A stretch of DNA of 64,000 nt from positions 60,674 through 124,673 of the forward strand of contig CAYYQC010000001.1 of NCBI GenBank assembly GCA_964473715.1. The letters are read 5' to 3'. A model generated the notes under the pieces. That model was not told the origin of the DNA. It made no database searches and saw nothing but the letters and a program-made list of their open reading frames with translations. Every line of letters begins with the position of its first letter. Within the stretch, counting starts at the first letter, position 1. Source of the stretch: an uncultured Gammaproteobacteria bacterium. GTDB lineage: Bacteria; Patescibacteriota; Patescibacteriia; Magasanikbacterales; UBA922. Shown piece by piece: positions 8,339 through 52,700 of this stretch. The position numbers and the translations under genes are program-made.

Positions 8339-8492
8339 CATTCTTATTCTCACCAGCAAATGATGAAGATAAGAGTTGTGGGGGCGGCGAAATTAATCAC
8401 CGCCCCTTTGCTCCCTTCCCCTCCAAGGGAACCATTCCCGGGCGCGCGTGCCGGGCAGGTCAGAGATTTCTGACCACTTAGTTGTGATGCGC

Positions 8493-9845
8493 CTAGTTGG
8501 CCGGCGGGCTCGGCATGAGCCAGTCGTCCCATCCGCCGGGCGAGCAGATGTAGACCCCGTTGAGGTCGGCCGGCTTGGAGCCGTCGAACACCTCGTTGAG
8601 GGTCCATTTCGGGTTGATGCCCTGCGGGATGAGGGTGATGTTCGGCACCGCGCCGGAGCACAGGTTTCCCTGGCCATCGACGTTACCGCTACCGACCCAA
8701 TCCTGGGCCTCACCCTCGTGGTTCGTCACCACGTTGAAACCGAATACCTGGCCCTCGCACCAGGTCACCTCGCGTCCGAGGTTCTGCCACTCGCCGACCG
8801 GCCAGCCGTTGTTCGCATCAGCGTAGCTGACGAGACCAAAGAACTGGAACCCCTGCTTCACGCGGAGCGTGTAGCAGTTGACGGTCGGGAGAACGATGGG
8901 AGTACCGTTGCAGACGCCGGAAGCGCCGCACTGGTCGCCCGTCGTGGCGGAGTCGCCGTCGTCGCAGGTCGCGCCGACATTGATGGTTCCGCCGGCGCAG
9001 AGGCCGTTGACGAAGGTCGTTCCCTGCGTGCAGGGGTTGAAGTCGTCGCAGGTCTGCGCGGAGGGGGTCGTCGTTCCGACGCAGACGCAGGAAGCGTTGA
9101 GCCGGTCGTTGGTGGTGTTGATGTTGCCGTCGTCGCAGGATGCGCCGACGTTACAGGGCGGAGTAGGTGCCGAGTGGCAGCCCGTGCCGTCCGTGCAACC
9201 GTAGTCACACGACTTGAAAAAGTAGTCCTCCGGGACGCAAGTGCCGCTGACGCAGCTGGCCTTGGTCTGATAGAGGTTGTTGTTTTCGCACCACTGCGAC
9301 CCGGCGCCGCAGTCGGCGTTGGTGATACACTCGGGAACCGGGATCGGATCGACGTCGTCGTTGTTGATGATGACGATGGTCGTCGTGCCGTCGGCACCAT
9401 CCTTCATCGTGAAGGAGGTCCCGTCGGTGCACTTGACGATCTTGGTCCCGTCGCTGTTTGGGAATGCGGAGCAGGACGAGCCGTCGAGCCCGTCAAGTCC
9501 GTTCTTCCCGTCCGTCCCGTTCTTCACGGTGGCGGTGGTACCGTCGCTGCAGGAGATGCTGGCGCCCGTGCTGGTCTCGCTGACCATGCACGAAACGCCC
9601 TCCTTCCCGGGCACGCCCTGCGGACCGCGGCAGAGGCCGCTGTCCACGATGCAGACACCACCTTCGCCACAATCGGCGTTGGAGGTGCACTTCAGCGTCT
9701 CGGACTCGCTCTGAGGCTGAGTCGGATCGGCGCCGCAACCCGCGGCGAGGGTCATGATGAACACCACGACGAGGAAACCAACCGACTCGGTCAGCGAGGC
9801 GAACAACGCCACCTTGAAATTGCGCACGGTATCTCCATGAAGCAA
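8493..9845 (-). CDS. high-GC lipoprotein with collagen-like GxY triplets and Myxococcus-type cysteine-rich repeats (CDDGN..C)
   Basis: Lipobox signal ...FIMTLAAGC. GPQGVPGKEG and GTDGKNGLDGLDG triplets. Repeats SCDDGNINTTNDRLNASC and TCDDGDSATTGDQCGASGVC. GC-rich codons. Confidence 0.6.
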   Translation of the reverse strand: MLHGDTVRNFKVALFASLTESVGFLVVVFIMTLAAGCGADPTQPQSESETLKCTSNADCGEGGVCIVDSGLCRGPQGVPGKEGVSCMVSETSTGASISCSDGTTATVKNGTDGKNGLDGLDGSSCSAFPNSDGTKIVKCTDGTSFTMKDGADGTTTIVIINNDDVDPIPVPECITNADCGAGSQWCENNNLYQTKASCVSGTCVPEDYFFKSCDYGCTDGTGCHSAPTPPCNVGASCDDGNINTTNDRLNASCVCVGTTTPSAQTCDDFNPCTQGTTFVNGLCAGGTINVGATCDDGDSATTGDQCGASGVCNGTPIVLPTVNCYTLRVKQGFQFFGLVSYADANNGWPVGEWQNLGREVTWCEGQVFGFNVVTNHEGEAQDWVGSGNVDGQGNLCSGAVPNITLIPQGINPKWTLNEVFDGSKPADLNGVYICSPGGWDDWLMPSPPAN

Positions 9846-10373
9846 AAGTGCCGCTCTTTCACATCGTTCGCGTGTGAATAGAGGGCAAAGGTCACCTGAA
9901 CCGTAGTGTTAGGGATAATAGACACCGAATGGTGTCCAGCAGAGCCCCATCACTACGTAGATGGGGAAGAAAATATCTTAATAAAATATCTTCTTCCCCA
10001 TGGTGACCTCTTCTAGAGAGGTGCGTTATAACCTAAGCTGTAAAGAGAGGTATGTATCTCACCTTTCGGGGAGACAGTGGTACCCTGTTCTGGGCCAGAT
10101 TGTCTGGTTCAGGACAGGAGACCGCTTTAAATTTTAACTGAAAAGTATACCATTATTAGACGAATTTGTCAAGGGGGTTATCCACTCCCCTTAGAAGAAG
10201 CTCAATCACCTGGGAACCAACTATATTGATTACCAAAGGATTGAGTGGGAGCGGCTTTTCGAGCTACTCCCAGCCGTGTCGCTACCCCGTGGGCAGACCG
10301 ACTCGACTGAGCAGCAAAAAGCCACTCCCTCCCCCCTTGTGTCCCGCGCGAGCTAGCGCTGCGGGACGATGTC

Positions 10374-11342
10374 CTAGAACTTGTATTCGACCTGAAGGCC
10401 GAATTCGAACAAGCTCAGCACCGAGGCGTCCTTGAAGGACATCCCTGGCGCGATGTTTGGGTTGACTCCACCCTCACCGTAGAGGGTGAAGAGGCCAGCG
10501 TAGGCCGAGGTGGAACGCGAAAGCGCCAGCGGGCGGAACTCCGCTCGTGCGTCGATCGCGATTCCCCGAATGTCCCAGCTCCAAGCCGCATCTGGACCCG
10601 ACTGGGTCCAGCGTGCGACCAGGTAAATCCCGAAAGCTTCCCGGGCATAGCCCAGGAGCCACGAGACCTCCCCGCCGATCTTACGGCTCGTTTCCGACCC
10701 ATCGCCGGCGAGACCCATCAGGGCCCCGACGGTGACTGCCGTCCGGAAGTCGTAGACTCCCAGCTGGATACCGGCGTAGACGTTCTGGATGGAGGTGTTG
10801 CCCCCCACCAGACGGTAGCCGGTGCCGACGAGCGGCGAGATGTGAACGATGGACTGGGGCGGGGCGTCGCGGCCATTGCGAACGACCGCTCGTGTGCCAT
10901 CCTGACACTCGATGGTTGCCCCGCGCATGGTCTGGTGGACCGTACAGGACTTGCCGTCCTGACCGTTGCTTCCATCGACGCCGTCGATCCCGTCGCACCA
11001 TTCGGCCGCGGTGCCATCTCGGCACTCGAGCCGGTGGCACTTGCCATCGGTGTCCGTCACGTCGGAGATACTGCAGGAGCTCTTCGTGAGCTCCTCGAAC
11101 TCCTTGCGCTTCTTCTCGCGCGCGCGGAGGTTCCACTCCGCCCACTCCTCGCAGGAGATGGGATCGCCGTCCTGGTTCCGACCCCAGAAACCGGGGCCAT
11201 CCGCAGAACAGCAGAAGGTGGAGGTGAAGGCGCGGGACTCGCAACGGCCGACGCAGTCGGCCCCGTCGTTGCAGGTCTCCTCGGCCTGCGCGCTGAAGGT
11301 GAGGACGAGGAAAGCGAAGAAGAACATTACGAAACGAACCAT
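10374..11342 (-). CDS. high-GC secreted Cys-rich protein with a C-terminal OMP-like beta-barrel signature
   Basis: Signal peptide MVRFVMFFFAFLVLTFSAQA. Cys-rich N-terminal region with GIDGVDGSNGQDG. C-terminal alternating-hydrophobic strands ending ...LQVEYKF (terminal Phe). Confidence 0.55.
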   Translation of the reverse strand: MVRFVMFFFAFLVLTFSAQAEETCNDGADCVGRCESRAFTSTFCCSADGPGFWGRNQDGDPISCEEWAEWNLRAREKKRKEFEELTKSSCSISDVTDTDGKCHRLECRDGTAAEWCDGIDGVDGSNGQDGKSCTVHQTMRGATIECQDGTRAVVRNGRDAPPQSIVHISPLVGTGYRLVGGNTSIQNVYAGIQLGVYDFRTAVTVGALMGLAGDGSETSRKIGGEVSWLLGYAREAFGIYLVARWTQSGPDAAWSWDIRGIAIDARAEFRPLALSRSTSAYAGLFTLYGEGGVNPNIAPGMSFKDASVLSLFEFGLQVEYKF

Positions 11343-11656
11343 GGTGTTTCTCCGTGCCCAGCAGCGCTGGGCAAGTTTGGGTGTAACCTGAGTTGTACGG
11401 TACGCTTGCCCAGGGGAACCCCTAGGCTTTTGTTGTTGGTCACCGAAGTGGCCATCTCAATTCCCTTCTATACTAGATAGAAAGGTACTAAAATGGCGAT
11501 TTTGGCTAAGATTAGCGACGATTTGCCTATTTAAAAACAACAAACGAGTATAGCATTTTTTAGTGATTTTGTCAAGCCTGTTATGGATATATACCCTAAA
11601 CTAAAAACCCTCTCTTTACAAGAAGGTTTTTATAATTACCTGTTTCTAGACCATGG

Positions 11657-19880: not shown

Positions 19881-20272
19881 GGGGATGACAGGCTTCGCTA
19901 GGTGGAGCTTGTTACTGTAATTAGGCATGTCGGCCGCACCGCCGTTAGAGGTGCACAAGTAATAAGTGCCAACTTATTCAACCAGGTGAAGACAGCTGTT
20001 GCTCGCGCATTCAGCCCTTCATTTGCTCCTGCTCTCGCTTAATCGCCTGTAGCCATCACTCTTCTGAATCCTAATAAGAAATCAGTGGTGCCAACCCATT
20101 GGGATATACCAGCTTCTCCAATCAGAAGTGAGCTGGAAGAACTTGGCTCTGATTTAGGATGCTGATATTTTGTCGCTTTTTCACCAGTGTCCGAAACAAC
20201 AAAGCTGGCTACACATGTAGATTAATTCTGTAACCCATCTATACCCGAGTTCAATTCTCGGCATCTCCACCA
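19881..20272 (+). ncRNA. ssrA: tmRNA (ssrA)
   Basis: Begins GGGGATG and ends CATCTCCACCA, giving a 7-bp acceptor stem with a G.U pair at the third position. T-arm CCGAG-TTCAATT-CTCGG. Internal tag reading frame ...ANLFNQVKTAVARAFSPSFAPALA-TAA. Lies immediately after smpB. Confidence 0.85.
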
Positions 20273-21894: not shown

Positions 21895-21968
21895 GGATCG
21901 GTAGTTCAACTGGTTAGAGCACTGCCCTGTCACGGCAGAAGTTGCGGGTTCGAGTCCCGTCCGATCCG
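21895..21968 (+). tRNA. tRNA-Asp (anticodon GTC)
   Basis: Cloverleaf: acceptor GGATCGG/CCGATCC, D-stem GTTC/GAGC, anticodon stem CTGCC/GGCAG with loop CTGTCAC, T-arm GCGGG-TTCGAGT-CCCGT, discriminator G. Near-identical in layout to bacterial tRNA-Asp. CCA not encoded. Confidence 0.85.
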
Positions 21969-21980
21969 CAGAACAGAACG

Positions 21981-27687: not shown

Positions 27688-30291
27688 TTATTTCCCCTCA
27701 ATAATATTCGCCAATTCCAACCGAGCCGCTTCCCACACACTTGGATCATCAGACCACGACACAGGACCATTGAGGTAAGTTGGGTCAGCTGGATTTTCTA
27801 CACCTACTTCCCACATGGCTTTTGGTACTAAGCGATTAACAATTTCTTGAGTTTTAGCTGGGTTAACTTTGGCAGCCAAAGTAAGATAATCTACATCCTG
27901 AATACCACGGCGCCAGAATTTAAGACGCAAACTAGCAATTGGGCCAGACACATTATATGACTCAGTTGGGAAAATTTTATCAGTACCTGGATAAAACAGC
28001 ACACCGTCACCATTGGAATAATTCCAACCAGTAAGACCACGAATTGAATCTGGTGTGCCTGCGCCACCAAAGGTCATGGCTTGTTTAAACACATTAGTTT
28101 GACCTGTACCACCTTGTGTATTGTTGTAATAAGTAGATTCCCAATAAAACCAACGACTTACATTTTTCTTATATTGTCCCCACGCAAGTTCACGAAGCGC
28201 CACACCGTCATCATCGGTCATAAACGAACCCTGACCCGGCCGACCACCATTGTACATCATGAATTTTTTGCCAGGTGTATTTTGGTAATAATTCACAGCA
28301 TTTTGCCATATATCTGTTTCACCAAGTGTCATTCCAGAAACCACATAATCAAGACTTGGTGTTTCTACTTGCGCATGCATTGGCCACATGGTTACCATAG
28401 AAGGCACTTTACTACCTGAACCAGGATTATTATTTATCCAACTGGCCCACTGCTCAATTTGTTGATAATCCTGAACTTGAGGCTCATCAATTAAATGCAA
28501 GAAATATTCTGTGCCTGGCGCATTATTCGCAAACCAATCGGCCCAATTATTAGTGTGATTCCACATCGCAGTTTTACCTTCATTTTTCCAACCCCATGAG
28601 CCATATGGACCAATCGCGTAAACACCATTTCCCACACCAACACCAGGACCATCATACCCATTTGCAGCTGAGAAAAGTGTGCCATTTAAACGTGAAATCC
28701 AATCTGGAAATGGAGCATCTTCATTCCAAACTAATTCACTAGTTGGACTTGCATCAATTAAAGAAATTTTGTGCCTGTGAGCAAGTAAAAAATGTTTATC
28801 TCGCAAATCTTTAATTGCCGCCACTTTACCAGCGGGGTATGCTTCGCCCAAATAACGCTCATTCAAATCTTTATAACCCATGTAAAGCATGGTTTTAGAA
28901 TTTGGTTCATCGGGTAAAGCAAAATTTTTCACAGTTAACTGCACAGGAATGGTGCGAGTAATTACACCGTTTTCTTTAATGTTTACTGTGCCATTATAAA
29001 TTCCGGCTGGCGCATTTTTTGGGATATAAATATCTGCCCAAATACTTTGGTTTTTATTTGCTGCAACAGTGAATGTACTGTGGAGTTCAATTGGCACTGC
29101 GATGTCTGGGAAATTTTTATTTGCTGCCGGACGATTTACCCATTGACGGTCAGTAGCACGAAGACGTGCAGGTAGCTGTTGTTCATCATAATTACCGGCC
29201 ATAAAAGCACTGAGCCCTTTGATTTCCAAATATCGAACATAAAATAATTCAATATTTCTATCAGTCCATTGATACAAATCATTGCCAGTGGCTGGCTTAC
29301 CTTTAATGGTAAAATTATTTGGGCCAGTTAAGGTATCAAAAGAAACGGAAACATTTGCGGCCTGTGTATTTTTAGCTTCTAAAATTACATTAAAATTCAC
29401 CACTTCATTTTTGGCACCAAAAATCGAAATAGTATTTCCATTCCAAACTGAATTAGTTACATTCAAATTATTTGAAGCACGCAAATCTTCTTGTACCACT
29501 TTATCCCCGCCTTCATTGGCCCAAACTGCGGAAATGTTTGACCCAGTTGGAACTGGTGGCAATGGAGTTGGGGTTGGGGTTGGAGTTGGTGTCGGAATCG
29601 GAGTAGGTGGCGGCACAGGCACAACCACTGGTTTAGCAGAAATAAAATTAAGATTTTTAGCTAAGTTTTTATTAGCAAATTGGGCAGTGACTCGCACGTA
29701 CACTTTTTTATTATTTTGCGGTAAATTATTAATTGTCACTGAAGTATTTTTTGTAGAATATGAACCATAATCAGATTTGCCAGAACCACTACCAACAATG
29801 ACCAAATAATTATCAGCACTTTGATTGGTCCAAGTAAGCAGAGTGGTTGCGCCCGCCACTTTTTGACCAGCAATAGGCGAAATAAAAGTAACGGCCTTTG
29901 GTTTTATTACTGGTAAAGGTACTGGAACTGGAGTCGGCGCTGGAGTGATTGGTACAGTGGTAGCATTCAACACAAAATCTTGCGCCGGACCACCGGCAAA
30001 CACCCGAATATTAATTTTCGAAACAGCGGGTAAATTATCAACACGAAAGGTGGTACAAGGCGCGGAATTAAACCATTGGTAATTAGGTGATCCAACCGAA
30101 GAACCAACGGCCACTTCACAAGCGGTTCCAGTGGGTGCAGCCAAATTAATCATCGCTGTGCCATTTGCCAAAGTACTCGAGGATAACAAAGCCACATCAA
30201 CAGCTTGAACTGGAGTTACTATAAAAGGTGAGATTAGCAGGGCAAAAATTCCAATTAAGCTGAACGTAAAACGATTGAAGCGAGAAAGCAT
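27688..30291 (-). CDS. large secreted protein (867 aa) with Pro/Thr-rich linkers; possibly carbohydrate-active
   Basis: Signal peptide ...FIVTPVQA. PTPIPTPTPTPTPTPLPPVPT linker. W/Y/N-rich C-terminal catalytic-like domain. Confidence 0.7.
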   Translation of the reverse strand: MLSRFNRFTFSLIGIFALLISPFIVTPVQAVDVALLSSSTLANGTAMINLAAPTGTACEVAVGSSVGSPNYQWFNSAPCTTFRVDNLPAVSKINIRVFAGGPAQDFVLNATTVPITPAPTPVPVPLPVIKPKAVTFISPIAGQKVAGATTLLTWTNQSADNYLVIVGSGSGKSDYGSYSTKNTSVTINNLPQNNKKVYVRVTAQFANKNLAKNLNFISAKPVVVPVPPPTPIPTPTPTPTPTPLPPVPTGSNISAVWANEGGDKVVQEDLRASNNLNVTNSVWNGNTISIFGAKNEVVNFNVILEAKNTQAANVSVSFDTLTGPNNFTIKGKPATGNDLYQWTDRNIELFYVRYLEIKGLSAFMAGNYDEQQLPARLRATDRQWVNRPAANKNFPDIAVPIELHSTFTVAANKNQSIWADIYIPKNAPAGIYNGTVNIKENGVITRTIPVQLTVKNFALPDEPNSKTMLYMGYKDLNERYLGEAYPAGKVAAIKDLRDKHFLLAHRHKISLIDASPTSELVWNEDAPFPDWISRLNGTLFSAANGYDGPGVGVGNGVYAIGPYGSWGWKNEGKTAMWNHTNNWADWFANNAPGTEYFLHLIDEPQVQDYQQIEQWASWINNNPGSGSKVPSMVTMWPMHAQVETPSLDYVVSGMTLGETDIWQNAVNYYQNTPGKKFMMYNGGRPGQGSFMTDDDGVALRELAWGQYKKNVSRWFYWESTYYNNTQGGTGQTNVFKQAMTFGGAGTPDSIRGLTGWNYSNGDGVLFYPGTDKIFPTESYNVSGPIASLRLKFWRRGIQDVDYLTLAAKVNPAKTQEIVNRLVPKAMWEVGVENPADPTYLNGPVSWSDDPSVWEAARLELANIIEGK

Positions 30292-30380
30292 AAAATATTT
30301 TTAACATTATAAAACATGCAAGTGAAATGTCTCTGAATTGATAGTTAATATATCCTAATTATGATTTTTTAGCAAAACTA

Positions 30381-30409
30381 AAAGACACCACTTTTGGTGA
30401 TGTCTTTTA
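30381..30409. terminator. bidirectional terminator hairpin in native low-GC sequence at the left edge of the second high-GC islet
   Basis: aaagacacca-cttt-tggtgatgtcttt with flanking A-run and T-run. Confidence 0.55.
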
Positions 30410-30525
30410 GTTCGGGAGCAATGGGTATGCTCCGTCCCCCTCTGTAAGATGTTGGTTTAAGTGATAGAACTTTGAGCCCATCGACCGAAGTCGTTCAAAG
30501 TTCTAGAGTTTTTTCGCTCATGGTC

Positions 30526-31173
30526 CTACTCGCTCGGATTGATCTCCTGAACGTGGAGGATCTGAAAGGGTAACCAGTGCCCAACCTGCATTCCAGTGAA
30601 GGAATACTTCTGTAGGGTGAGGACAAACTGGCCCCCATTGTCCGGAATGAGCGAAGTCAGACGCAAGACATTCTCCTCGCCCACCTCCACATATGACTCC
30701 CTGGTGTCGTCGATTGGCCCGCCCATGGATACCTCGATTTGGGCGTGGTCGAAGGCCGGAACCAATAGCTCACCAGCGAAGGTGAACTCAGCGACCCGTT
30801 CAGTGGTGCCGGGATTCAGCCACTTCCACTTGAACCCGTTGGCCAGGTTCATGCGGATCGTACATGAGTCAGGACAGAACACGGTGACATCACCGTGAAT
30901 TGAGAATGGGTCGAACCAGTCGACCTCCTTCTCGACCGCCTCAGTGATGCCGTCGTGGTCGTTGTCGACCCCATCCGCCGGGGTGGCAGGCTCGTGTTCC
31001 TGGGGCGGACATGGCTCGTCGCTGTTGCCAGCGGCGAAGGCCGCGGCGGCGGCCGCGATGAGTTCCGGCGGCAGCGGGACCTTCACTTCCGGCACCGGAA
31101 CCTTAATGTCCGGGGTGCAGGCGGCGACGAAGAGGGTGAAGAGGGCGATGATGAAGTTGATGGAAACGCGCAT
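30526..31173 (-). CDS. high-GC lipoprotein (probable start MRVSINFIIALFTLFVAAC)
   Basis: Lipobox VAAC. PVPEVKVPLPPE linker. GC-rich codon usage unlike its neighbours. Confidence 0.55.
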   Translation of the reverse strand: MRVSINFIIALFTLFVAACTPDIKVPVPEVKVPLPPELIAAAAAAFAAGNSDEPCPPQEHEPATPADGVDNDHDGITEAVEKEVDWFDPFSIHGDVTVFCPDSCTIRMNLANGFKWKWLNPGTTERVAEFTFAGELLVPAFDHAQIEVSMGGPIDDTRESYVEVGEENVLRLTSLIPDNGGQFVLTLQKYSFTGMQVGHWLPFQILHVQEINPSE

Positions 31174-31275
31174 TGTCTTTGCTCCGTCTGAGAAATGATT
31201 CCGGGAAACTCCCCGGCGAGTACTAAACCAACATTGTAAAGAACTGACTTTTTTTAGCAACGAACGAATATAACA

Positions 31276-31318
31276 CAAAAAAGAGCCTTTGTCAAGGCTC
31301 TTTCCTATTTTTTTGGCT
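31276..31318. terminator. bidirectional terminator hairpin at the right edge of the high-GC islet
   Basis: AAAAA-agagcctt-tgtca-aggctct-TT...TTTTTTT. Confidence 0.6.
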
Positions 31319-31350: not shown

Positions 31351-31593
31351 TTAGCGAGTACCCGTGCGCATGCCAATGCGACCTTTATTTCCTAATCCGC
31401 CACCCTTACCACGTCCCATGATTGGACCGCGAGATAACTGACCAGGACGACGCAAAGGAAAAGCTGGAGCAACTTTTTTCACCAACTTTTGTAGGTCTTC
31501 ATTTGTCGGGCTATTATTACTATCATCTACTATAGGATTATTTACATTACTGTCGTCGGCGGCGATATTATTATTAGAATTATTGATATCCAT
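31351..31593 (-). CDS. small protein with an Asn/Asp-rich N-terminus and a Gly/Arg/Lys-rich C-terminus (80 aa)
   Basis: ORF only; low complexity. Confidence 0.35.
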   Translation of the reverse strand: MDINNSNNNIAADDSNVNNPIVDDSNNSPTNEDLQKLVKKVAPAFPLRRPGQLSRGPIMGRGKGGGLGNKGRIGMRTGTR

Positions 31594-31612: not shown

Positions 31613-31891
31613 TTAAGCGACTTTTTTGATTTTTGGTTTCTTATTTTTTACAACTCTTTTCTTCCTTACAATTGCTTTACTTTTTGTAGCAGTATTTTCT
31701 TGGGTAACCACACTGTCTTTAAAAAATCGCATGATAGATTTTTTATTTCTCGTTCCACCACGTGGTGGCTGACTCCGCGGCACTCCACCCTGACTTCTGG
31801 TGACATTTCCCTTAAGATCTTTCTTAAAGAAATAATTGATTTTCACCTTATTAATTGGATCCATATTATATACTTTGAATTGATTTAACAA
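31613..31891 (-). CDS. small basic protein with a KKPKIKK-type tail (92 aa)
   Basis: ORF only; Lys-rich C-terminus. Confidence 0.4.
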   Translation of the reverse strand: MLNQFKVYNMDPINKVKINYFFKKDLKGNVTRSQGGVPRSQPPRGGTRNKKSIMRFFKDSVVTQENTATKSKAIVRKKRVVKNKKPKIKKVA

Positions 31892-41857: not shown

Positions 41858-42751
41858 CTAAGGTTTAGTTTCAGCACTTGGAGTGGTGGTTGGAGTATTG
41901 GAAGCAGTGCTAGTAGTGGTAACAGCAAATAACCTACCATCACCATTTGGATTATAACCATTTTTAATTTCCGCGGCATCCTCATAGGTATCACCGTCAG
42001 TATCTGCCTTGAGCGGGTTAGTTTTCCAGGTAAGGACTTCATCTCCATCGCTTAAAGTATCGCCATCAGAATCCCAAGCAAGCATATTAGTACCTTTTTC
42101 TTTTTCTACACTATCATCCAAACCATCACTGTCAGTATCCAAAACTGGTTCACCAAACAAAATTAAACTATCAGTAGAAGTATTATTATCTAATTCAATA
42201 GTAGTCGTAACTACGCTATCAGTGTTTTGATTATTTGATGGTGTAGTGGTTGGAATCAGAGCGGTGTTATTTGGCAGCACTTGAGTGTCTGGTGGATTAA
42301 TATAAGTAAAATAAGCCCATGCAGAGCCACCACCAATAATAATGATTGAAAGCAAAACAATTACAGTAATTAAAGCTTTATGACCACCGAGTGGGGCAGC
42401 CAAAACACCATCAGAATTAGCATTTACAGGCATTGGCATAGGTTCCACAGACTCACGACGTGGAGGTGTAGCCATGGACACAGGCAAGGGTGCTGGTTCG
42501 GCCAAAGGAGGCATTTCTGGCTCCATCATGGGCTGTGGCATTGGCACAGATTCGATTTTTGGACGCAATACTCCTGCATCAAGCGCAGTAGGCGGCATGT
42601 TGATTGGGTCAGGCTGAGGCAAAGCAGGCTCTACATCAGCACCAGAAAACATGTCTTCTGGTTCACCCATGGGTAAATTATTTGGCACTGCACCGGCTGG
42701 AGGATTGTTCTGATTATCAAACATACGATTAATTACCTTTATAACGTTCAA
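41858..42751 (-). CDS. single-TM surface protein with a Pro-rich N-terminus and TSP3-like Ca-binding repeats (paralog 2 of 3)
   Basis: TM LLSIIIIGGGSAWAYFTY. DTDSDGLDDSVEKEKGTN...DSDGDTLSDGDEVLTWKTNP...DTDGDTYEDAAEIKNGYNPNGDG motif. Confidence 0.6.
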   Translation of the reverse strand: MNVIKVINRMFDNQNNPPAGAVPNNLPMGEPEDMFSGADVEPALPQPDPINMPPTALDAGVLRPKIESVPMPQPMMEPEMPPLAEPAPLPVSMATPPRRESVEPMPMPVNANSDGVLAAPLGGHKALITVIVLLSIIIIGGGSAWAYFTYINPPDTQVLPNNTALIPTTTPSNNQNTDSVVTTTIELDNNTSTDSLILFGEPVLDTDSDGLDDSVEKEKGTNMLAWDSDGDTLSDGDEVLTWKTNPLKADTDGDTYEDAAEIKNGYNPNGDGRLFAVTTTSTASNTPTTTPSAETKP

Positions 42752-43718
42752 GTTTTTTGCCCTGACTAGCGTCTTGCAAAAACTTAAGGGTAGTTGGTGA
42801 TAAATTTGGCAAAGTCATTTTGGCTTTTACAAAAACAAAGCCATTGTTTTTGATAGCAGTAGTGGAGAAATTTCCATCTCCAACTGGATTAAATCCTTTT
42901 AAAATTTCTAAACCATCTCTAAAACCATCACCATCAGTATCAGCATTGGTGGGGTCTGTACCAAAACGCTCAAGCTCAATACTATCAGAGAGACCATCGC
43001 GGTCAGTATCAAAATCACTGGTACTAAGGCCAAGGGTATTTTCATCATTATCTTCAACACCATCTGAATCTCGATCATTTTCTAAAATTGGAGCAACGCC
43101 TTCAGGAAGATTTTGATCACCAGAGGCTTTGATAAAATTAGTTTGCAAAAATTGTTTTGTTTTAGTGTTTTCATTAGATAAATTTCTAAGAACTTCATCT
43201 AGAGCATTTTGCCAAGCTGCATCATCGGACATATTATTCAATTCTTCAATCACATTTTCTGCTTGCACAAAGTACGCACTTGCTTGAATAACCAAGTTAT
43301 TAATAGCTTCGGGATCAGCATCTGACCATTTAGATTCACTTTTATTTACTTCAGCTACAAACTCTTCAGATTTTTGAGCTAATTTTTTAGCCTGATCAAT
43401 AGCCTTTTCATCAGCCGAAGTAGTGGTGAGTAATTGTACAAATTTCAGATTATCTTCTGCAAACTTTAACCGAAGTGTAGCGTCCCTAGTAGCGTTAAAT
43501 GAAAATAATAATTGAAAACGCTGACTTATACCACGGAAAAAAAATCCTACGTTACTTGGAATCTCAGCATTCACTGTGGCAGAGGTGTTAGTTTGCGCAG
43601 TCACAGCAGTTCGACTTGGTGCGGTTTGCGTAGTCACTACCTGAGCCTGGACACTGAGCGCCGGTTGAGAAATAACACCCAAAACCAAAGTGACAACGAT
43701 AATAAGATTTTTTTTCAT
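42729..43718 (-). CDS. secreted protein with TSP3-like Ca-binding repeats (paralog 3 of 3)
   Basis: Signal peptide MKKNLIIVVTLVLGVISQPALSVQA. DRDSDGVEDND...DTDRDGLSDSIELERFGTDPTNADTDGDGFRDGLEILKGFNPVGDG motif. Confidence 0.6.
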   Translation of the reverse strand: MKKNLIIVVTLVLGVISQPALSVQAQVVTTQTAPSRTAVTAQTNTSATVNAEIPSNVGFFFRGISQRFQLLFSFNATRDATLRLKFAEDNLKFVQLLTTTSADEKAIDQAKKLAQKSEEFVAEVNKSESKWSDADPEAINNLVIQASAYFVQAENVIEELNNMSDDAAWQNALDEVLRNLSNENTKTKQFLQTNFIKASGDQNLPEGVAPILENDRDSDGVEDNDENTLGLSTSDFDTDRDGLSDSIELERFGTDPTNADTDGDGFRDGLEILKGFNPVGDGNFSTTAIKNNGFVFVKAKMTLPNLSPTTLKFLQDASQGKKLERYKGN

Positions 43719-43755: not shown

Positions 43756-46700
43756 TTAGTTAGGGCAAGTCACAGGCACTTTACCTGGCATATAGCTAAA
43801 TAAGCCGGTTGAACATTTATGGAATAAACCATTCTGGTACAATTGACCATTACTAGTACCATTAGCCTCTTTTCCTTCAACTGGTTTAATTGTATATTTT
43901 CCACTTTCTTTTACCATATTAAAGACTTGCCAGTAACTATAAGCAGAGGCTGCTGACCCTGTAGGCAAATTAGCGTCCTTAATTTTAAAGGTATAATCTG
44001 GCTCATACACAGAGTACAGAGAAATATCACTGGCATTTAAACCATTCTTAGGCAGCGGTTTATTAGTATAAACCAATACTTCCAAAGAGCTATTTTTACT
44101 ACTACCAATCGATGTTCCATTCAAACTATTTACAAAGAAAGTAAATGGTTTTCCACTCTGCAAATAATCATTGGTAACCAAGGTAAAGGTTTGGATAAAT
44201 GTTTTTCCAGACACTGAAACTTGGTTTGGACTTGCGATAATACCGTAATTCGATTCACAAGTTTCTCCTTGAGTGGCAGACTGCGAAGGTGTCCAAAATG
44301 TTCCTGCGCGCATCATACTACTACAGAGCGCAGTTTGATTATAATTGTTCCACCAACCTTTCATAGCATAAATTCGATGATCTTGAATGCCTTTGGACCA
44401 AATATTTTCATCAAATTTATTAAAGTCTTCATTATACAAGGCACCATTAAATTCCGCGGTTTTATCTTGGTCAGTCCATTTTAAGACAATCCGGAAAGTA
44501 TCTGGTGGCACAGATGGAGAAGTAATTAATTCTTGTACAACCGGCGCATTTGCCGACTGAGCGTTCACGGTGAATGGGAACAAAGTACCATTTATTTTTG
44601 CTGTTGGAGCAATAGTCATGTAACTATTATTGTTATTTTCCAAAACTTTACTTGGGTTAAACAACATTGAGTAACGATTAACACACATTTTATCTTGTTC
44701 TACTTGCAAGGCCTTGGTTGCATCAACCAAGCTCTTGAAACCAATTTGCGGCACATTAATTGTAGGATTTGCTAAATTATTTCCACCAATCAAAGCATAA
44801 CTATCTGCACCCTGTTTGCGGTAAAAATAAAAATCATTTGTACCCGGCCACTCACTTCCCTTTGGACGCTCATTCCAAATTTTTTGAATTGGATTAAGGA
44901 TATTAATAATTGGTATTACACCTTGAGCACTTGGTCCACAAGCCACACATTGTTGAACCAATAATGTGCAGTTACTCTTACATGAATAACTACCTTGGTC
45001 AGAACATATAGCTGGAACAGTATTATTGTTTTGCTTCATTACTATCTGTCCTGTAGTACTAAAATCACATTGTTCATTTTTATTTGCGTCAATAACACCA
45101 TTACCACAAAATGCATTCTGATCAACAGTTAGAACCTTACAGCCATTACCACAATATGAACAAGAATCTTGGTTTGGCCCTGGTACACAGGCTTTATCAT
45201 TATTTTCACCCGCGTCACATTCTTCACCAAGAATTTTTTCAGTAGTACCATTTCCACAAGATGGATTTGTCCCCGATGAAGAACCTGAATCATTAGGCGC
45301 ATTATTTACGCTACAACTAGCATTTAATGGATTATCTGGACCTGGAGTAGGTACATTAATTCTCAAACATTTAAATTCAGTACCCTTAAGCGGAGCATAG
45401 GAATCATTAATTATCATTGGTGAACTTGGTGCGCCTTCAGCATATACTCTATGATTTGTAGAGCCAACCAGGGTTTGATATGTACTTGCCTTACGACAGT
45501 CAGAGTCAGTGGTGCAGCCAAAAATTTCGGTTTCATTACCCTGAGGTGACGCGTAAATAAATTTTGTGTTATAGGCACAAGCAAAGGCATCATCAGCTAC
45601 TTTCTCAATTTTTTTAAGATCAGTTCTAATTTTAACAGCATATGGTTCAGAATTTTCAGTTACAGGAATACTTGTACATTCAAGTGCATTTTCACAACGT
45701 AAATCATACGTATCAAAACTACAATATTTTTCTAATTTACACACTGAGCTACAGGAATCACCATTTGTTGTATTCCCATCATCACAAGTTTCTCCATTAG
45801 CTGATTGTATAAATCCATCACCACAATATCCTCCATAATTACGGCAATCCCAAGCACATGATTTATTACGATCAACATTATATTTAGCGGTAAAGCCATC
45901 AATACCCGCTTCACAAAATTCCAAGGTTTTTTTGGCAGAGTCAATGAAATCTTTTTGATTATTTCCACAACGCGCTGCAGCTAAGCCAGTACAAATAGCA
46001 TTACAATGACCATACGAGTCATTTAAAGCACCATCATCACACACTTCAGCACCCTCTACTTTTCCATTACCACAACTACCGGTTGAAGCACAGCTGCCGT
46101 ATTGCCAGGTACACTGACTGTTACAAGTACGTTTTACTAATTGTCCTTCAGAGCAAGTTTGTGGAGTAACAGTTGGTACGGAGCATGAACTTAACCCAGC
46201 ATAAAAGTTATTTGACTCAAGCACTTGGTTCGGAGTCTGACAGGTAAATAAATTATTAATATTTTGGTTCAAATCATTGGTTAGTTCAGCATAAGAGCGC
46301 ACAAATCCGCCTGGCCCATAACTTACTTGTCCATCATAATGACGATATGATTCATTTATACTTCGACAATTATTATCAGTACTACAAGGGAATGTTTCGT
46401 ATTCACCTTGTGCGTTTAAAATTGGATCATATTTAAGCACTGGGTTAAATTTATTAAATACGCAGAAATTTGCGCTGCTTGGTAAATGATAAACATTTGC
46501 AGTGTTAAAGCTGGTTGTATCACAAGTTAACTTATTACCGCTATCAGCAAAAAACTGTTTGAGAGGAGCAGCGGTAAGCGCTTGATAATTAGGCTTAACC
46601 GGTAAATATAAATTTTTTCCATTTGTTGGGTGGAATGAAAGCAAGGCGTGTGTAAAATTATAATTACCCGGAGCAGAATTAACCCCCTGTACAAAAGCAT

Positions 46701-49700
46701 CACAATCAGCATTTGTGGAACACGATAAAAGTTTATATTTTGCTGCGACTGGATCGCTATCTTTTACCACTGCCAAAGCAGATCCAGCCACACCCACACA
46801 GGCACCCTTGGCATTTGTATCCAAAGTAAACTTGCCATTAATATACCGGCCAACGCTTCGGCCAATTCTTCCACAATCATCATCACTATTACAGGCTTTA
46901 GCCACTGCCCACTTGGAGCAATGGTCATAGGTTGTTTGTACATCAGTATCAGCAAGTTCCACAGTTCCTGGAGGGTCACACTGTTCTGCCTGATTTAAAA
47001 TACCATCACCACATTTTTCCTGAAATGGATTATATGAACCAGTTGAACATCCTGACCAAGGCGCAGTAGTAAAGCGTTCCACATCCACATAATCCTTAGT
47101 AATTTGGTCAGTAGTTTTGAAGAATTCTAAAGGAGCATGCAATTTATAAGTATTGCCATTTTTAATGTATTCATATTCATACACACTCTTAAATTTAGGA
47201 CAGAAATACGTGGTACTTGAAGCACTCCAACAGGTTTGTGGGTCATCTGCATTACAAGTTGTCCAACGATTAAGTGGGTCACTAAATGAACCTTTGGTCA
47301 TTTCTTGCAAACGCCCCCAAGACTCACCCCATTTTGAAACAGTATAACCTGGCACAAATGAACCGCCCGCAAAAGTACCTTTAAAATCAGGGTTACTACC
47401 TTGGGTAGCAAAGAAAGTATCAATATTATCTTGAGCCACGCGTAAATCATTTAACCGTTTCCAATCGCGAAGGAATTTAGTACGCGCATTTGAACAAGTA
47501 CCGATGGTACCATTCTTAGGTGTACCAGCCGCGTCACGACAATCAAAATCAGTTGTGCATTGTTCAGCATTAATAGCGTTTGGATTTGTACGGATATTAC
47601 CACCCGCAATCAAACAGTGATTGTGATTAGAAAGATTAGTATTAAAATTCAAGCGTTGTAATAATTTGTTAAATACTTCACGGGTTTTACTATCTGCATT
47701 TGGATTAATACTAAACAAGTACACATAACTATTTACCGCGTTACTAGCAGAGGTTGATTCATAATTCAAAGCCTGAATATAATAATTATTTCCATCAGTT
47801 AGAGCTCCGTATTCTCCAATGACTTCGGAACGGAAACTTGCCACTGAACCAAATTTTTGGGTTTGACTAAACCATTCAGTGAGCGGCACATTGACTGGTC
47901 CAAAAATTTGAATACCGATAACATCACTATTTTTATCATTAAAGAATACTAATTTTTTGAGTGAATCAGAACTAAGTGGTCCACTTTCCAAACTCTGTTG
48001 ACGTAAATATGGTAGATCATCAGCATCATTAGTGGCACTACCAGCATCAGCACAATAACCAGTTTCATAATTATAAACCGCATCACGGAATGGATAACCT
48101 GGATTAGCGGGCCATGGGCGTTTACAGAATAAAGCTTCAAGTTCAAAAGTATCATTGAAAACTTGTCCCAATTGATTATTTTCTGCACTCGTATCCGCTG
48201 TAACTTTGGCCATGGCTACGCCAGTAATTTTACCTGGTACATTTTTGGCACGAACATTTAAAACATCGGTTTTAGCAGTATCAGTTTGAGAGAAATCAAA
48301 CACACTGTTTGGATTTGGCGCCCAAGTCCAGGTCCAAGCATAGCCAGGAGTAGAAACAATCTTTTGACCATTAGTGCTGGTGGCAAAAGCCGTGAATGTT
48401 TGTGTACTATTTGGCTCGTTAAACACATGAGCTGGAGGAGTTACTCCAACCTCTTTAATTTTACAGATATTATTACTGGTTTTAAAGAACCAGGCATCAT
48501 TACGAGCTGAACTGCCCATAGCTTTCATAGGTACACCACCCATGTCTACAATTCCACCCACATCACCACGCAAAATCACCCCGTAAATAGTATTTGCATC
48601 CAAGGTCTTACCAATCTCTAAAGATACACGACTAATTGTATCTAAACCTGATGAAACTTCACTTTGCACAGAAACTGACACAGGAACTTCTCCATTACAC
48701 CAAGTTTTGATAGATTTAAATTCCTGAGTACCAGAAACAGTGGTGGCACCAGCTTCTGTGGCCCAAATATTTTTTGTCCAATCAGTCAAACGACCCCAAA
48801 GCTTGGCCCAAAAACCTTTTACTTCTATTGGACTAGCCGCAATAATTTTATTAACAGTATCGGTAAAGTTTTGACCTTGCACAGCACTACAATCAAAGTT
48901 CGCGGCAGTATGGCCAGTTACTAAGAATACATTTTGGTTGATTGATTCCGCGCGCATTTCTCGATCAAAAGATACTTCCACTTTAGTATTTCGACAAACA
49001 TTTTCTGACCCTGCAAAACCAGCGCCATCTACTGGATATTCGGCCAACGGTCGAGGACGTGGCACACAACAAGAATTACCACCTACACCCAAATTATTAT
49101 CTGGATTACTTGGACAATTGTTATATGATTTATCAGTAGTCGCAAAATCGTATTCTTTGTATCCACATTGCAATTTATAATCTGCAACACCAGTAATATT
49201 TTTACTACCGTCTTTAGTAGAGGCAGTAACTTTAGTTTGTTGATATGTGGTACCAGCCACTGGATTGGCCTTACCTACAGCCTGAACAATTTGCGTTGGA
49301 CCGACTAAATCATTAGGATTATTTTTATTAGTCTGATTAAGTTCACAACTTGGATTTTCTCCAGTTCCCACTTGACGATCACCACACACAGAAGGAGATG
49401 AATATGTAGATTTAGAACCAAGCAACGTACATTTATCACTACATCCAGGCGCGTTTTTAACACACGGTGGATTTGTAAGCGCACAAGCATCGATAAACTG
49501 ACATGATTTATTACACATGGCCGAAGTGACGGTATCATTACCAACTTTTACACCTACTTCACAATCTTCATTTGGCTCTACCTTACCATTACCACAAATA
49601 CTAACAGCCGCTTTACATGAAGGGTCGGTGCTAAAACCAATATTTGCCAAACACCATGAAGCAGCCGTTTGTGTACCTTGGTGTAAACACTGCGCAGAAC

Positions 49701-52700
49701 AACCATTTTGTGAATTTGGGTCAGAAATGTCACAGGTTTCTTGACCTGCAGTAACTTCACCATCACCACACACAGCCACACCAGGTACATTGGTGGTTGT
49801 AGGTTTTGAACCGCGAAGTACACAGGTGTTGGTACAATAAGCATTATTATTTTTTACTTTTCCCGCTTCATTACCAGGATCACACTGCTCACCACGATTT
49901 GACTCAACCACGCCGTTACCACAAACTCCAGCTCCAGTTTTTTCTGCACGATAGGCATCATTATTACCTGGACGCAAACAATTCAAAGCACAACTAGTTC
50001 CTGGCACTTCACCTGCACCACCAATATCACAATCTTCACCAGCTTCAGGCAATCCACCATTACCACAAATTGGATTATTTTTAGCCGCTGAATCTGAAGC
50101 AATGGTACTGCCTTTTTTTACACAGGCCAAAGTACAAGCAGGGTTAACATTTGAATATTGCGCAGCTGGTAATTGAGAAATTTTAGCGACATTAACATTT
50201 TCAGTGCTCCAACTATATTGGTATGCCCACTTACTAAGGGCTTGCCCCACTTTACTGCATGCATTTGGCGCGCTATATGGCACCACAGTATATTTATCTT
50301 GTTGGCCGACAGTGGTAGCCGTTAAATCAAGTGGACTTACTTGCAAGAAACCAACACTACATGGTTTTGCATCAGCCCGTGTTTTAAACACCCATTGCGT
50401 TGGTGGCAATGGTTTGCCATATACAGTTGGGTTAACACGCGCAATAGATTTAATAGCCAGACTCGCGCCATTTAAACTAACTTTATAATATTGATTAGGA
50501 TCTAGATTTGGACCAGACGCACTTAGATGTGCACGCAGTGTAAGTTGCGTAGAATTTTCCGTATCAATCGTATAGATAGAAGTTGGTTGTGTGTTAGCAC
50601 AAGTAACACCATCCATACATTTAAATACTTGGAATCCAGAAGCATAGGTACTCGTCACCATTTGACGATTAAAATCCACACGGATACTCGCATTGTTACA
50701 AGATTCAATACAATTTGGTTCATAATATGTCACGGCTGGATCTGCCAAGTCAACAAACAAAGTACTCGTTGGACTCAAAGTAATTTTAGAGTTGGAATTT
50801 AAAAAGCTAGGTATTGATCCTGAAACCTGCATGCCAAAATAAATTGGACCCTTGGCATTAGCTGGATTCTTTTCTGCAGCTAAAATCACCAAAGCATTTC
50901 CTGAATTAGGAATAGCAGTTAAAGGAATTTCAAAAATAGGACGGTTTGGCGGAACCAAATCTACCCAATATAAAGAATTTTTTGCTTTATCCCCCACCAA
51001 TATTACATTGTACTGACCATTGGCATCAGCCGTAACCGTAGTACAAAGATTTACACTTGAACCACTTCCACTATACGGATTCAAACAAACCTGATTATTA
51101 ATAAATTTAATAATATATCCACTTGGTTTACCAGGAACAGAAGTGTCAACTTTTTGCACTAAAGTATTATTTGGGAACGTGCTTTTTTCTGGTTGTGTAA
51201 ATTTGAGTTGTAAAGCAAAAGTATTTTGCAAAGATAACTGATTACTGACAGTTTGAGTCAAATTAGTTGGAGCAGTAGGGGCAAATCCAGCCTGACCCAC
51301 AGTAATATTAGCGGCTTGTAAAATATTAGTACCACCAATGTCAGTAGAATTTAAATTAGGTCCAGATTCAATAACCGCTTCAGCTTTAATAACCGCAAAA
51401 TCTGGAGAGGTATGAGCGCGCGCAGTAACAAGTGCGCGGATATTTTTGTATCCAGCAATTCCCGGCGCAGCGGCCACTGGTGACTTGAGTGCGGTGGCCA
51501 AATCAGACCCACTTTGACCTTCAGACGGTGACCAATTCCAAGCATAGGTATCTACTAACTGTGAAGAAACCACTGAACATTCTTGATTACCTTTACCCCA
51601 AACAAAATAATACAATGGATGCACTGGGATACTTGGTGGAATAAACACTTTACTACTATCAAATGGATATCGTGTGTCTTGGAGCACACCCAAATTACGC
51701 GCAGTGTATGTGCGCGGATTAATCGCAGCCCCAGTCAAAGTACATTCACTGGCATTTGTTTTAAAATTAAAACAATACGCAGTACCTTTTCCACAAGCAC
51801 GACTCGGTAAAAGCGGAGTATTAATAGTTTGATTTACACCAAGTACAGTCGCATGTTCTAAAGAAGTAATTTTTTCTGATAATTCAATTTGGTACCAGGT
51901 ATTTGATTCCAAATTATTTTTTGGCGGAGCCTCACGAATAATTAAAGTATTTGCACCAGTTTGATACGTAATATCCAAAGAATCTACTGCTGTTTTCTTT
52001 TCATCACAATCAATCCGATTACCTGGACCAGCTGCACAAGCAAATAATTTAATATTTTCTTTGGTTAAAGTATTTGGATCCATGCCCATGTTAAATCTAA
52101 GTGCAATAGTGGCATTCACACATGAGGCAGTGTTAGCCGCAGAAGTTTGTTTTACACGTGGAGTTGGCGAAGGGAAGTCAACATCATTACACTGTTCCAC
52201 TACTTGTGGCTGATTAGCCAAAACACCTGTCATAAAACGCCAAGTATAACCAGCCGCGCGTGTTTCTCCGGCACAAGCTAAATTATTCTTTTTCCACTGA
52301 CCTTCTTCTAGACCAGATTCACAACAGCGATACCCAGGTAAAGGAGTTTTATTACCAATACAACTTTCAACAGTATAATTTACAGCATTACTCCAACGAC
52401 CACTTTCATTGTCAAAAACACGAATTGGTCCACTGGACATTGATACGCCATTTTCATCTACCGGTAAACGAGTGGAAAAACCAGTGCCGTTTGGAAATCC
52501 TGACACTACAGGTGCTTTTCCTTCTGGAGTATCGTGACTCAAATTATATAACCAACCATCAATACCAGAATTAGTATTTGGGTTAGGTACAGCTCCTTTT
52601 TTCCAATAAATAACATCAATCACACCAGGACCTGGCACATTCACACCATAAATAGAAATTGGTGCGCCATCTACTGGCAATGGTGCAGGACCTTTACTTG

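Follow-up and report, generated by a model that had tools for sequence, protein, structure and literature searches.

Bacteria of the candidate phyla radiation (CPR), or Patescibacteria, live attached to other microbes, and their surface proteins form the interface with hosts and phages. To our knowledge, almost nothing is known about how these proteins vary. In the mycoplasmas, which have reduced genomes and depend on their hosts, the Vsp, Vlp and Vsa lipoproteins combine a conserved 5′ untranslated region (UTR) and signal peptide with a divergent, exposed mature part. O-antigen and capsule loci are multi-gene biosynthetic clusters flanked by conserved genes. They have an atypical guanine-plus-cytosine (GC) content that usually lies below that of the genome, they carry a conserved non-coding leader element, and their many old alleles are exchanged by homologous recombination in the conserved flanks. 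Here we describe a GC-rich islet with a single gene for a predicted lipoprotein, which is located at 30.4-31.2 kb of a stretch of 64,000 nucleotides from contig CAYYQC010000001.1 (hereafter the window, to which all positions refer unless another contig is named). GC enrichment has been noted before at recombining loci: the vls cassettes of Borrelia have 49% GC compared with 28.6% for the chromosome (PMC11499132), and recombining bacterial genes are reported to be GC-enriched (PMC4450053).

The islet is genuine: a GC-rich insert with a single gene, located in the AT-rich chromosome of a Magasanikbacteria-like CPR bacterium. We give a probability of roughly 55% to the reading that it is a cassette of foreign composition, complete in itself, that encodes a variable surface lipoprotein and sits at a recombination hot spot, and that its regulatory arms are functional and under strong constraint.

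A GC-rich gene in an AT-rich chromosome

Only two stretches of the window are GC outliers, one at 8.4-11.4 kb (island 1) and the islet itself. The islet reaches a GC content of 0.525 (30401-30800) and 0.613 (30801-31200), compared with ~0.39 elsewhere in the window. A sequence-only reading had placed a GC-rich islet with a lipobox protein here, and this description holds: the minus strand carries an open reading frame (ORF) of 215 codons that begins with the ATG at 31173, ends with a stop codon at 30526-30528 and yields a protein starting MRVSINFIIALFTLFVAAC. The GC content of this coding sequence (CDS) is 0.596, which corresponds to z=7.3 against 1159 background windows of 651 bp (mean 0.395, standard deviation 0.028, maximum 0.487). 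GC content at the first, second and third codon positions (GC1, GC2 and GC3) is 0.61, 0.41 and 0.77. Because GC3 in the adjoining genes is only 0.25-0.30, the minus-strand frame must be the coding one, and the anomaly does not arise from amino acid content. Rather, it resides in the synonymous positions of the lipoprotein reading frame. GC skew at the islet is approximately 0, and the coding strand shows no adenine depletion.

The sequence-only reading had also proposed a comparison of codon usage between the two islands, and this comparison reveals a common signature. Relative synonymous codon usage correlates between them at r=0.67-0.68, whereas the correlation with host genes ranges from -0.32 to -0.50 (-0.32 for the islet).

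Occupied and empty sites among relatives

Eleven contigs from 11 datasets (NCBI, ENA and Logan) carry the GC-rich lipoprotein gene at the same position and with identical junctions. All 11 share the gene order PEP (phosphoenolpyruvate)-utilizer-like gene, two genes for small basic proteins, lipoprotein gene and GH123-like gene, and in all of them the lipoprotein gene has a GC content of 0.55-0.60 and a GC3 of 0.61-0.77 within flanks of ~0.40 GC. This evidence base consists of a handful of metagenomic contigs from one narrow clade, and two related contigs are labelled Candidatus Magasanikbacteria. At least five lineages have the gene at this site, and the identity between their flanking proteins and those of the window is only 67-87%.

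The site is filled in contigs L001-L010 and L013 and is empty in L011 and L012. In the two empty sites, nothing intervenes between the terminator of the small basic-protein gene and the promoter of the GH123-like gene, TTGTCA/TTGCCA-17-TATAGT, which corresponds to the window sequence TTGCTA-17-TATATT at 30375-30347. The GH123 proteins of these two contigs are 76% identical to that of the window. The site therefore displays an insertion polymorphism. Contig L012 (CAZFKS010000003.1) shows synteny with the window across 14 kb or more even though it is titled 'uncultured Gammaproteobacteria bacterium', and it probably represents a mis-binned or mislabelled metagenome-assembled genome.

The two small Gly/Arg/Lys-rich basic proteins, encoded on the minus strand at 31351-31593 (80 amino acids) and 31613-31891 (92 amino acids), share the motif GRGKGGG..GKGR.GMRTG.R and match no Pfam family. 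Both are kept upstream of the site in all relatives, including those with empty sites.

The surroundings of the islet are core chromosome, with pyk, nrdR, ftsZ, ftsA, genes for transfer-messenger RNA (tmRNA) and tRNA-Asp, and glycosyltransferase genes. The tmRNA gene (19881-20272, tag peptide ANLFNQVKTAVARAFSPSFAPALA) and the tRNA-Asp(GTC) gene (21895-21969) do not adjoin either island. No integrase, transposase or reverse transcriptase was recognized among the 31 window ORFs tested. A weak but exact 11-bp direct repeat is present near the two ends of the islet and does not abut the inverted repeats, and there is no tRNA target. We rejected a transposon as an explanation, because the 19-nucleotide (nt) inverted repeats and the 11-bp direct repeat are separated by gaps of 7 nt and 65 nt and do not constitute classical terminal inverted repeats with a target-site duplication. 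An integron gene cassette was likewise rejected: the 3′ stem TAGAACTTTGA/TCAAAGTTCTA does not contain the RYYYAAC/GTTRRRY cores, no integrase was recognized among the ORFs tested, and the gene has its own predicted promoter.

Old, mosaic alleles of the lipoprotein gene

Five allele classes share 38-98% amino acid identity. The flanks of L001 are ~100% identical to those of the window, with a synonymous divergence (dS) of 0.002 in the GH123-like gene, whereas its lipoprotein gene is only 75% identical in nucleotides and 72% in amino acids. The dS of this gene pair is 1.09 overall and rises from 5′ to 3′ through successive thirds (0.33, 1.75 and 3.4), and the divergence ends within ~10 nt past the stop codon. 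The L001 allele is a mosaic that resembles the window at 31163-31067 and L002, whose flanks are only ~75% identical to those of the window, at 31256-31164 and 30972-30531. Contig L013 is 98-100% identical to the window throughout 4.3 kb of left flank. Its CDS reaches 34-47% and its right flank 56-94%, and its 3′ element (described below) is ~99% identical. Given the patterns in L001 and L013, the relationships among alleles contradict those among their flanks.

The ratio of nonsynonymous divergence (dN) to dS among alleles is ~0.15 overall, which indicates that they are functional and old rather than decaying or freshly mutated copies. Synonymous sites are saturated, substitutions occur at all bases, and dS is far above dN. 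One allele, P0003, recurs unchanged in six contigs, which come from six sequencing runs, and is therefore stable across samples. Thus, both mosaicism and purifying selection are evident at this gene.

The GH123-like gene, which encodes a secreted protein with Pro/Thr-rich linkers (27688-30291, minus strand), is itself uneven. Its N-terminal ~500 nt are 56-69% identical between the window and L013, compared with 84-94% for the remainder, and this strong divergence means that the variable zone reaches beyond the islet.

Conserved, structured arms around the variable core

The arms of the islet (Table 1) are 94-100% identical in each pair of lineages, and the intergenic DNA immediately outside them is unalignable. 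Matches of 17 nt between the arms and viral contigs are attributable to chance, as none extends by 4 nt. The conserved module begins at its 5′ edge with a small AT-rich hairpin that is kept in all islet-bearing loci. It is followed by the promoter hairpin, which is 94-100% identical in every pairwise lineage comparison and whose core (31280-31303) consists of 10 bp with 100% complementarity, extendable to 31275-31308. This hairpin includes the −35 box of the islet's own promoter. The promoter, TTGACA (31295-31290) and TATATT (to 31267) with a 17-nt spacer and an upstream TG, scores 11/12 in a consensus scan and is the best of the region. We predict that it drives the lipoprotein gene, and the hairpin probably doubles as the terminator of the upstream gene. 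The sequence-only reading interpreted this hairpin and the one at the opposite end (30376-30412) as native AT-rich terminators. Both hairpins exist, but they belong to the conserved module and are present only where the islet is present.

Table 1. Features of the lipoprotein islet, listed from 5′ to 3′ on the minus strand, and of a further islet in related contigs
Feature	Position	Strand	Description
Small AT-rich hairpin TTTGGCTAACTTAAGCCAAA	31312..31331	-	Terminator-like; follows the upstream gene for the 80-amino-acid basic protein
Promoter hairpin	31267..31308	-	Hairpin 31275-31308 holding a predicted sigma-70-type promoter
Conserved 5′ UTR	31174..31260	-	Direct-repeat copy, pairing arm, GC hairpin and ribosome-binding site
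5′ arm of 19-nt inverted repeat	31224..31242	-	84% complementary; partner at 30441-30459
Lipoprotein CDS	30526..31173	-	215 amino acids; GC 0.60, GC3 0.77
Signal peptide and lipobox	31117..31173	-	MRVSINFIIALFTLFVAA followed by C; Cys19 is the predicted lipidation site
3′ element	30376..30512	-	137 nt; structured, non-coding, ultraconserved
Second copy of 11-bp direct repeat TTGCTAAAAAA	30365..30375	-	Just past the terminator
Further small GC-rich islet	L002:3471-3849, L003:1065-1442, L009:125-538

The 5′ UTR contains, in order, one copy of the 11-bp direct repeat (31250-31260), the pairing arm, a GC hairpin CCGGGGAGTTTCCCGG (31201-31216) and a GGAG ribosome-binding site. Its arm sequence GTTCTTTACAATGTTGGTTTA is exact in 11/11 distinct islet contigs and absent from other loci, and the 11-nt core of the inverted repeat occurs within the 64-kb window only at the two arms. 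When full-length mRNAs of five alleles are folded, the minimum-energy structures include a helix between the 5′ and 3′ UTRs with a base-pair probability of 0.97-0.99. The coding cores of these five alleles are very different, yet the same helix is predicted for each.

Downstream of the stop codon, the 3′ element is composed of a stem-loop with an inner UUCG hairpin (30465-30505), the second pairing arm, a GGAGCA...TGCTCC hairpin (30415-30433) and an intrinsic terminator, whose arms (30376-30391 and 30397-30412) are 94% complementary and are followed by a T-run. The element is ~98-100% identical across five lineages whose lipoproteins share 38-87% identity, and its fold has a z-score of -6.3 relative to shuffled sequence. 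It matches no Rfam family at gathering thresholds, with sub-threshold matches only at chance level (E≥0.19). We considered whether it might encode a small peptide. However, its only small ORF, of 24 codons, is frameshifted by a 1-nt indel in L009 and L013, and the element is therefore regarded as non-coding. Together with its pairing to the 5′ UTR, it is a candidate cis-acting RNA that would fall outside the described families.

Just past the terminator lies the −35 region of the predicted GH123-like promoter mentioned above. This −35 box and its adjoining A-run are duplicated in the 5′ UTR, which creates the exact direct repeat near both ends of the insert.

The predicted surface lipoprotein

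The signal peptide reads MR-VSINFIIALFTLF-VAA-C19 and possesses the features expected of a bacterial lipoprotein processed by signal peptidase II, namely an N-terminal basic residue, a hydrophobic stretch and the pattern [LVI][ASTVI][GAS]-C within the first ~35 residues. The VAAC lipobox with Cys19 is found in 6/6 known alleles, with Ala-Cys invariant in the five that were aligned and also present in P0012. The earlier proposal that the islet encodes an exported protein is thus consistent with the predicted signal peptide of every known allele. The lipobox is followed by a linker rich in Pro and Val, which is conserved along with the signal peptide. Next come a helix rich in Ala, the acidic motif DNDHDG, a pair of Cys residues and a C-terminal domain that is rich in beta structure and varies most. 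This arrangement suggests a membrane-anchored protein exposed at the surface, whose beta-rich domain is probably the exposed variable part that faces the host cell or phages. We infer that the lipoprotein is under diversifying selection. Searches of Pfam, NCBIfam, PHROGs and PDB sequences yielded nothing significant, and an exact-protein look-up of the window's own lipoprotein returned no match.

Elsewhere in the window, two native AT-rich genes on the minus strand (41858-43718 and 43756-55185) contain bacterial TSP3 repeats of the DxDxDG type, which resemble the acidic motif of the islet protein. A giant ORF of 3809 amino acids adjoins these TSP3-repeat genes.

Origin and maintenance of the islet

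According to the reading that we favour, the islet would be a self-contained transcription unit of one gene that entered the GH123-like promoter region within a single Magasanikbacteria-like CPR clade. Besides its GC-rich core, the unit would bring its own promoter, embedded in a hairpin, its own terminator, and structured elements on both sides of the core, namely the 5′ UTR and the 3′ element. Its coding core would be foreign, most simply through an old transfer from a high-GC source, and since that transfer several old, functional allele classes would have persisted. Homologous recombination would have shuffled these alleles between strains and lineages by way of the arms and the 5′ third of the gene, all of which are conserved. 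The locus would accordingly be a hot spot of recombination instead of a recent arrival. The arms are predicted to supply the expression signals and probably form an end-to-end helix between the 5′ and 3′ UTRs that encloses the whole mRNA. That this helix stabilizes or regulates the transcript is a guess.

Several observations weigh against a foreign cassette of this kind. No donor or reservoir emerged from ~15 billion proteins, nor from phage, plasmid, viral and metagenome collections, and the search for a donor suggested by the sequence-only reading consequently identified no source. This search combined a word-indexed comparison with 5.8 billion clusters, an exhaustive hidden Markov model search of 1.84 billion representatives, scans of viral and metagenome contigs, and tblastn against phages and plasmids. 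The protein searches returned only four close clusters and one distant cluster, and the family as a whole amounts to six clusters, all of them at this locus; three further candidates (P0013-P0015) were dismissed as repeat-protein artefacts. Moreover, under an old transfer followed by decay, GC3 should have fallen by the time synonymous sites reached saturation. This is not seen: alleles whose identity at 4-fold sites is only 0.21-0.43, near or below the chance expectation, all retain their high GC3. From crude per-site rates, GC3 would settle at 0.59-0.72 in the islet and at 0.73-0.79 in the island-1 gene, whereas the adjacent GH123 gene would equilibrate at 0.31-0.44. Homologous recombination alone also fails to explain how 137 nt can remain ~99% identical between two diverged blocks. 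Finally, the pairing arms vary too little for a covariation test of the helix, and the AlphaFold2 model built from a five-sequence alignment has a predicted local distance difference test score of 36 and is unusable.

Raw polarised counts at first resembled GC decay, with 32 changes from strong to weak bases versus 9 in the opposite direction. This conclusion was withdrawn when the AT-rich GH123 control showed the opposite excess, which indicates that parsimony over-infers changes from common to rare states. The crude rate estimates provide no evidence for the simple decay of a foreign gene and are compatible with GC content maintained in place. Simple recent gene transfer does not explain the persistent GC-richness of the islet. 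This apparently stationary GC3 ranks with the differences between strains whose flanks are identical and with the near-invariant arms among the most unusual traits of the locus, none of which was visible to the sequence-only reading.

The main alternative, to which we give a lower probability, is that GC-richness is made or kept in place at this often-recombining locus. Either GC-biased gene conversion (gBGC) or selection acting on the transcript, which might favour a very stable, highly structured mRNA, would push third positions of the coding core to G or C, as has been argued for the vls cassettes. The retention of high GC3 at synonymous saturation and the implied equilibria favour this explanation, as do the recombination directly visible at the locus and the lack of an external donor in very large databases. 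However, the required shift in GC3, from ~0.29 to ~0.77, far exceeds the effects described for gBGC in bacteria. The GH123 control also shows that the parsimony-based rates are drawn towards 0.5 and cannot be trusted at saturation. In addition, there is no vls-like GC skew, GC2 is not raised, and neither silent cassettes nor paralogues were found in the window or in databases. Precedents for such a process exist in the GC-enriched recombining genes of bacteria (PMC4450053) and in the vls cassettes (PMC11499132). More speculatively, the islet might belong to an undescribed class of diversification loci in Magasanikbacteria-like CPR bacteria, where GC-rich cores are swapped or renewed between near-invariant structured arms. 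In that case the high GC3 would be due to a locus-specific process that creates and holds it, either strong gBGC or a dedicated, arm-guided replacement working through a transcript paired end to end, rather than to inheritance from a high-GC donor. The cores of such loci may encode surface or exported proteins, and some may be small ORFs.

Other explanations for the locus appear much less probable. If the 19-nt inverted repeats were recombinase sites of an invertible, phase-variable element, a flip of 764 bp would uncouple the gene from its promoter (31267-31295). The repeat does bracket the ribosome-binding site and the CDS with the promoter outside, and it is the longest inverted repeat of the region and invariant across lineages. 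This mechanism nonetheless seems unlikely, given that 11/11 contigs show a single orientation (in assemblies, from which rare flipped molecules could escape), that the window ORFs tested include no invertase or recombinase, and that an RNA helix explains the repeat equally well. A recent acquisition by this genome from a high-GC donor, between two native terminators, would be a version of the acquisition suggested in the sequence-only reading. It would fit the strongly atypical composition and codon usage and the missing gene in two relatives, but we judge it very unlikely, since no fewer than five lineages, with diverged flanking proteins, have the gene fixed at this site, its alleles are deeply diverged, no donor was found, and the supposed terminators travel with the insert. 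Targeted hypermutation of the coding core by a diversity-generating retroelement or another mutator might be suspected from the sharp boundaries of variation at the CDS ends, the structured element after the stop codon and the 25% difference between strains with identical flanks. Yet the 64-kb window holds no template repeat, the ORFs tested include no reverse transcriptase, and the alleles are discrete, mosaic and stable across samples, with divergence at all base types, dS far above dN and no adenine depletion. Hypermutation is thus scarcely plausible. The abrupt change in GC content and the shortness of many islet-bearing contigs might also point to an assembly chimera, in which reads from a high-GC organism were misjoined into an AT-rich contig. 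We assign this explanation, which the sequence-only reading had left as an alternative to real acquisition, a negligible probability, as different assemblers produced the same junctions in 11 independent datasets, all 11 preserve the arm motifs exactly, and strain variation at the locus better explains the short contigs.

Similar islets at other sites

Island 1 and a further islet found in relatives share the architecture of the lipoprotein islet. Island 1 is present in the same synteny in two other assemblies (L014 and L015). Compared with these, its gene for a protein of 322 amino acids ranges from 14 to 96% identity per 50-nt block, while the ~390-nt non-coding stretch between its two genes (9934-10326) is mostly 96-100% identical per 50-nt block, with a minimum of 68%, and the 5′ piece at 11403-11452 is 92-98% identical. 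The further islet is located at window position ~31340, just upstream of the lipoprotein cassette, in L002-L007 and L009. Its arms are at least 95% identical, and its core of ~190 nt is essentially unrelated between allele types. No earlier description of GC-rich hypervariable islets in CPR genomes was found in literature searches.

The real genes of island 1 (8400-11400) are on the minus strand, and a plus-strand ORF of 477 amino acids is their shadow (GC1 0.84). One gene (8493-9845, GC3 0.86) encodes a lipoprotein of 450 amino acids; it has Cys-rich repeats, and it matches TIGR04201, a myxobacterial Cys-rich repeat, weakly and below threshold. The other (10374-11342, GC3 0.81) encodes the 322-amino-acid protein, which has a signal peptide and ends in ...VEYKF. 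This ending resembles the terminus of an outer-membrane beta-barrel, which is odd for a CPR bacterium. The non-coding stretch holds a 41-nt palindrome (9961-10001) and has no Rfam match above chance.

The further islet carries a divergent promoter (TTGACT-17-TATCAT), a GC-rich terminator and a conserved 5′ UTR with a hairpin. Past the first ~20 codons, the short ORF of one allele type shows no relationship to that of another. Contig L011 has another one-gene islet with a GC content of 0.65-0.69 at a different site (L011:9870-10700). Its protein of 207 amino acids has no signal peptide and no family match, and hence such islets are not limited to exported proteins.

Comparison with known systems

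The locus presents a case in which strains with otherwise identical chromosomes differ by the replacement of a predicted surface lipoprotein, which makes it a candidate determinant of host or phage interaction. Three loci follow one design, in which a hypervariable GC-rich core is situated between ultraconserved structured arms, and two adjacent genes appear to evolve under opposite third-position biases. If this is true, it would be among the clearest bacterial cases of base composition set locally and not genome-wide, with a bearing on the debate between gBGC and selection. It also cautions that not every GC anomaly represents a recent transfer.

Classical genomic islands and islets share with this locus an atypical composition and codon usage as well as presence/absence polymorphism among relatives. 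In the present case, however, the window ORFs tested include no integrase, there is no tRNA target, identifiable donor or clear compositional decay, and the direct repeat is weak. Phage 'morons' (PMC3594210) are also single-gene units of differing base composition that are located between resident genes and equipped with their own promoter and terminator, signals which for the islet were recognized by consensus scan. Unlike morons, the islet resides in the core chromosome and not in a prophage, is multi-allelic with near-invariant arms, and has no relatives in phage collections or PHROGs.

Among variable surface loci, the vlsE/vls system of Borrelia (PMC11499132) provides a close parallel as a hypervariable, recombination-driven gene for a surface lipoprotein that is GC-rich in an AT-rich genome (60% versus 39% in the present case) and whose GC-richness persists across lineages. 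The islet differs in that it has no array of silent cassettes, paralogues or strong GC skew, its observed variation is between strains and not within a clone, and the proteins are unrelated. The Vsp, Vlp and Vsa genes of Mycoplasma resemble the islet in their conserved 5′ UTR and signal peptide and their divergent mature part. In contrast to these genes, the islet is single-copy, no tandem repeats, gene family or site-specific invertase were found, and its GC-richness has no counterpart there. Unlike O-antigen and capsule loci, the islet is a single protein gene between non-coding arms of 100-140 nt. We rate it as akin to acquired islets and variable surface-lipoprotein loci, a known kind of locus that appears here in a new form.

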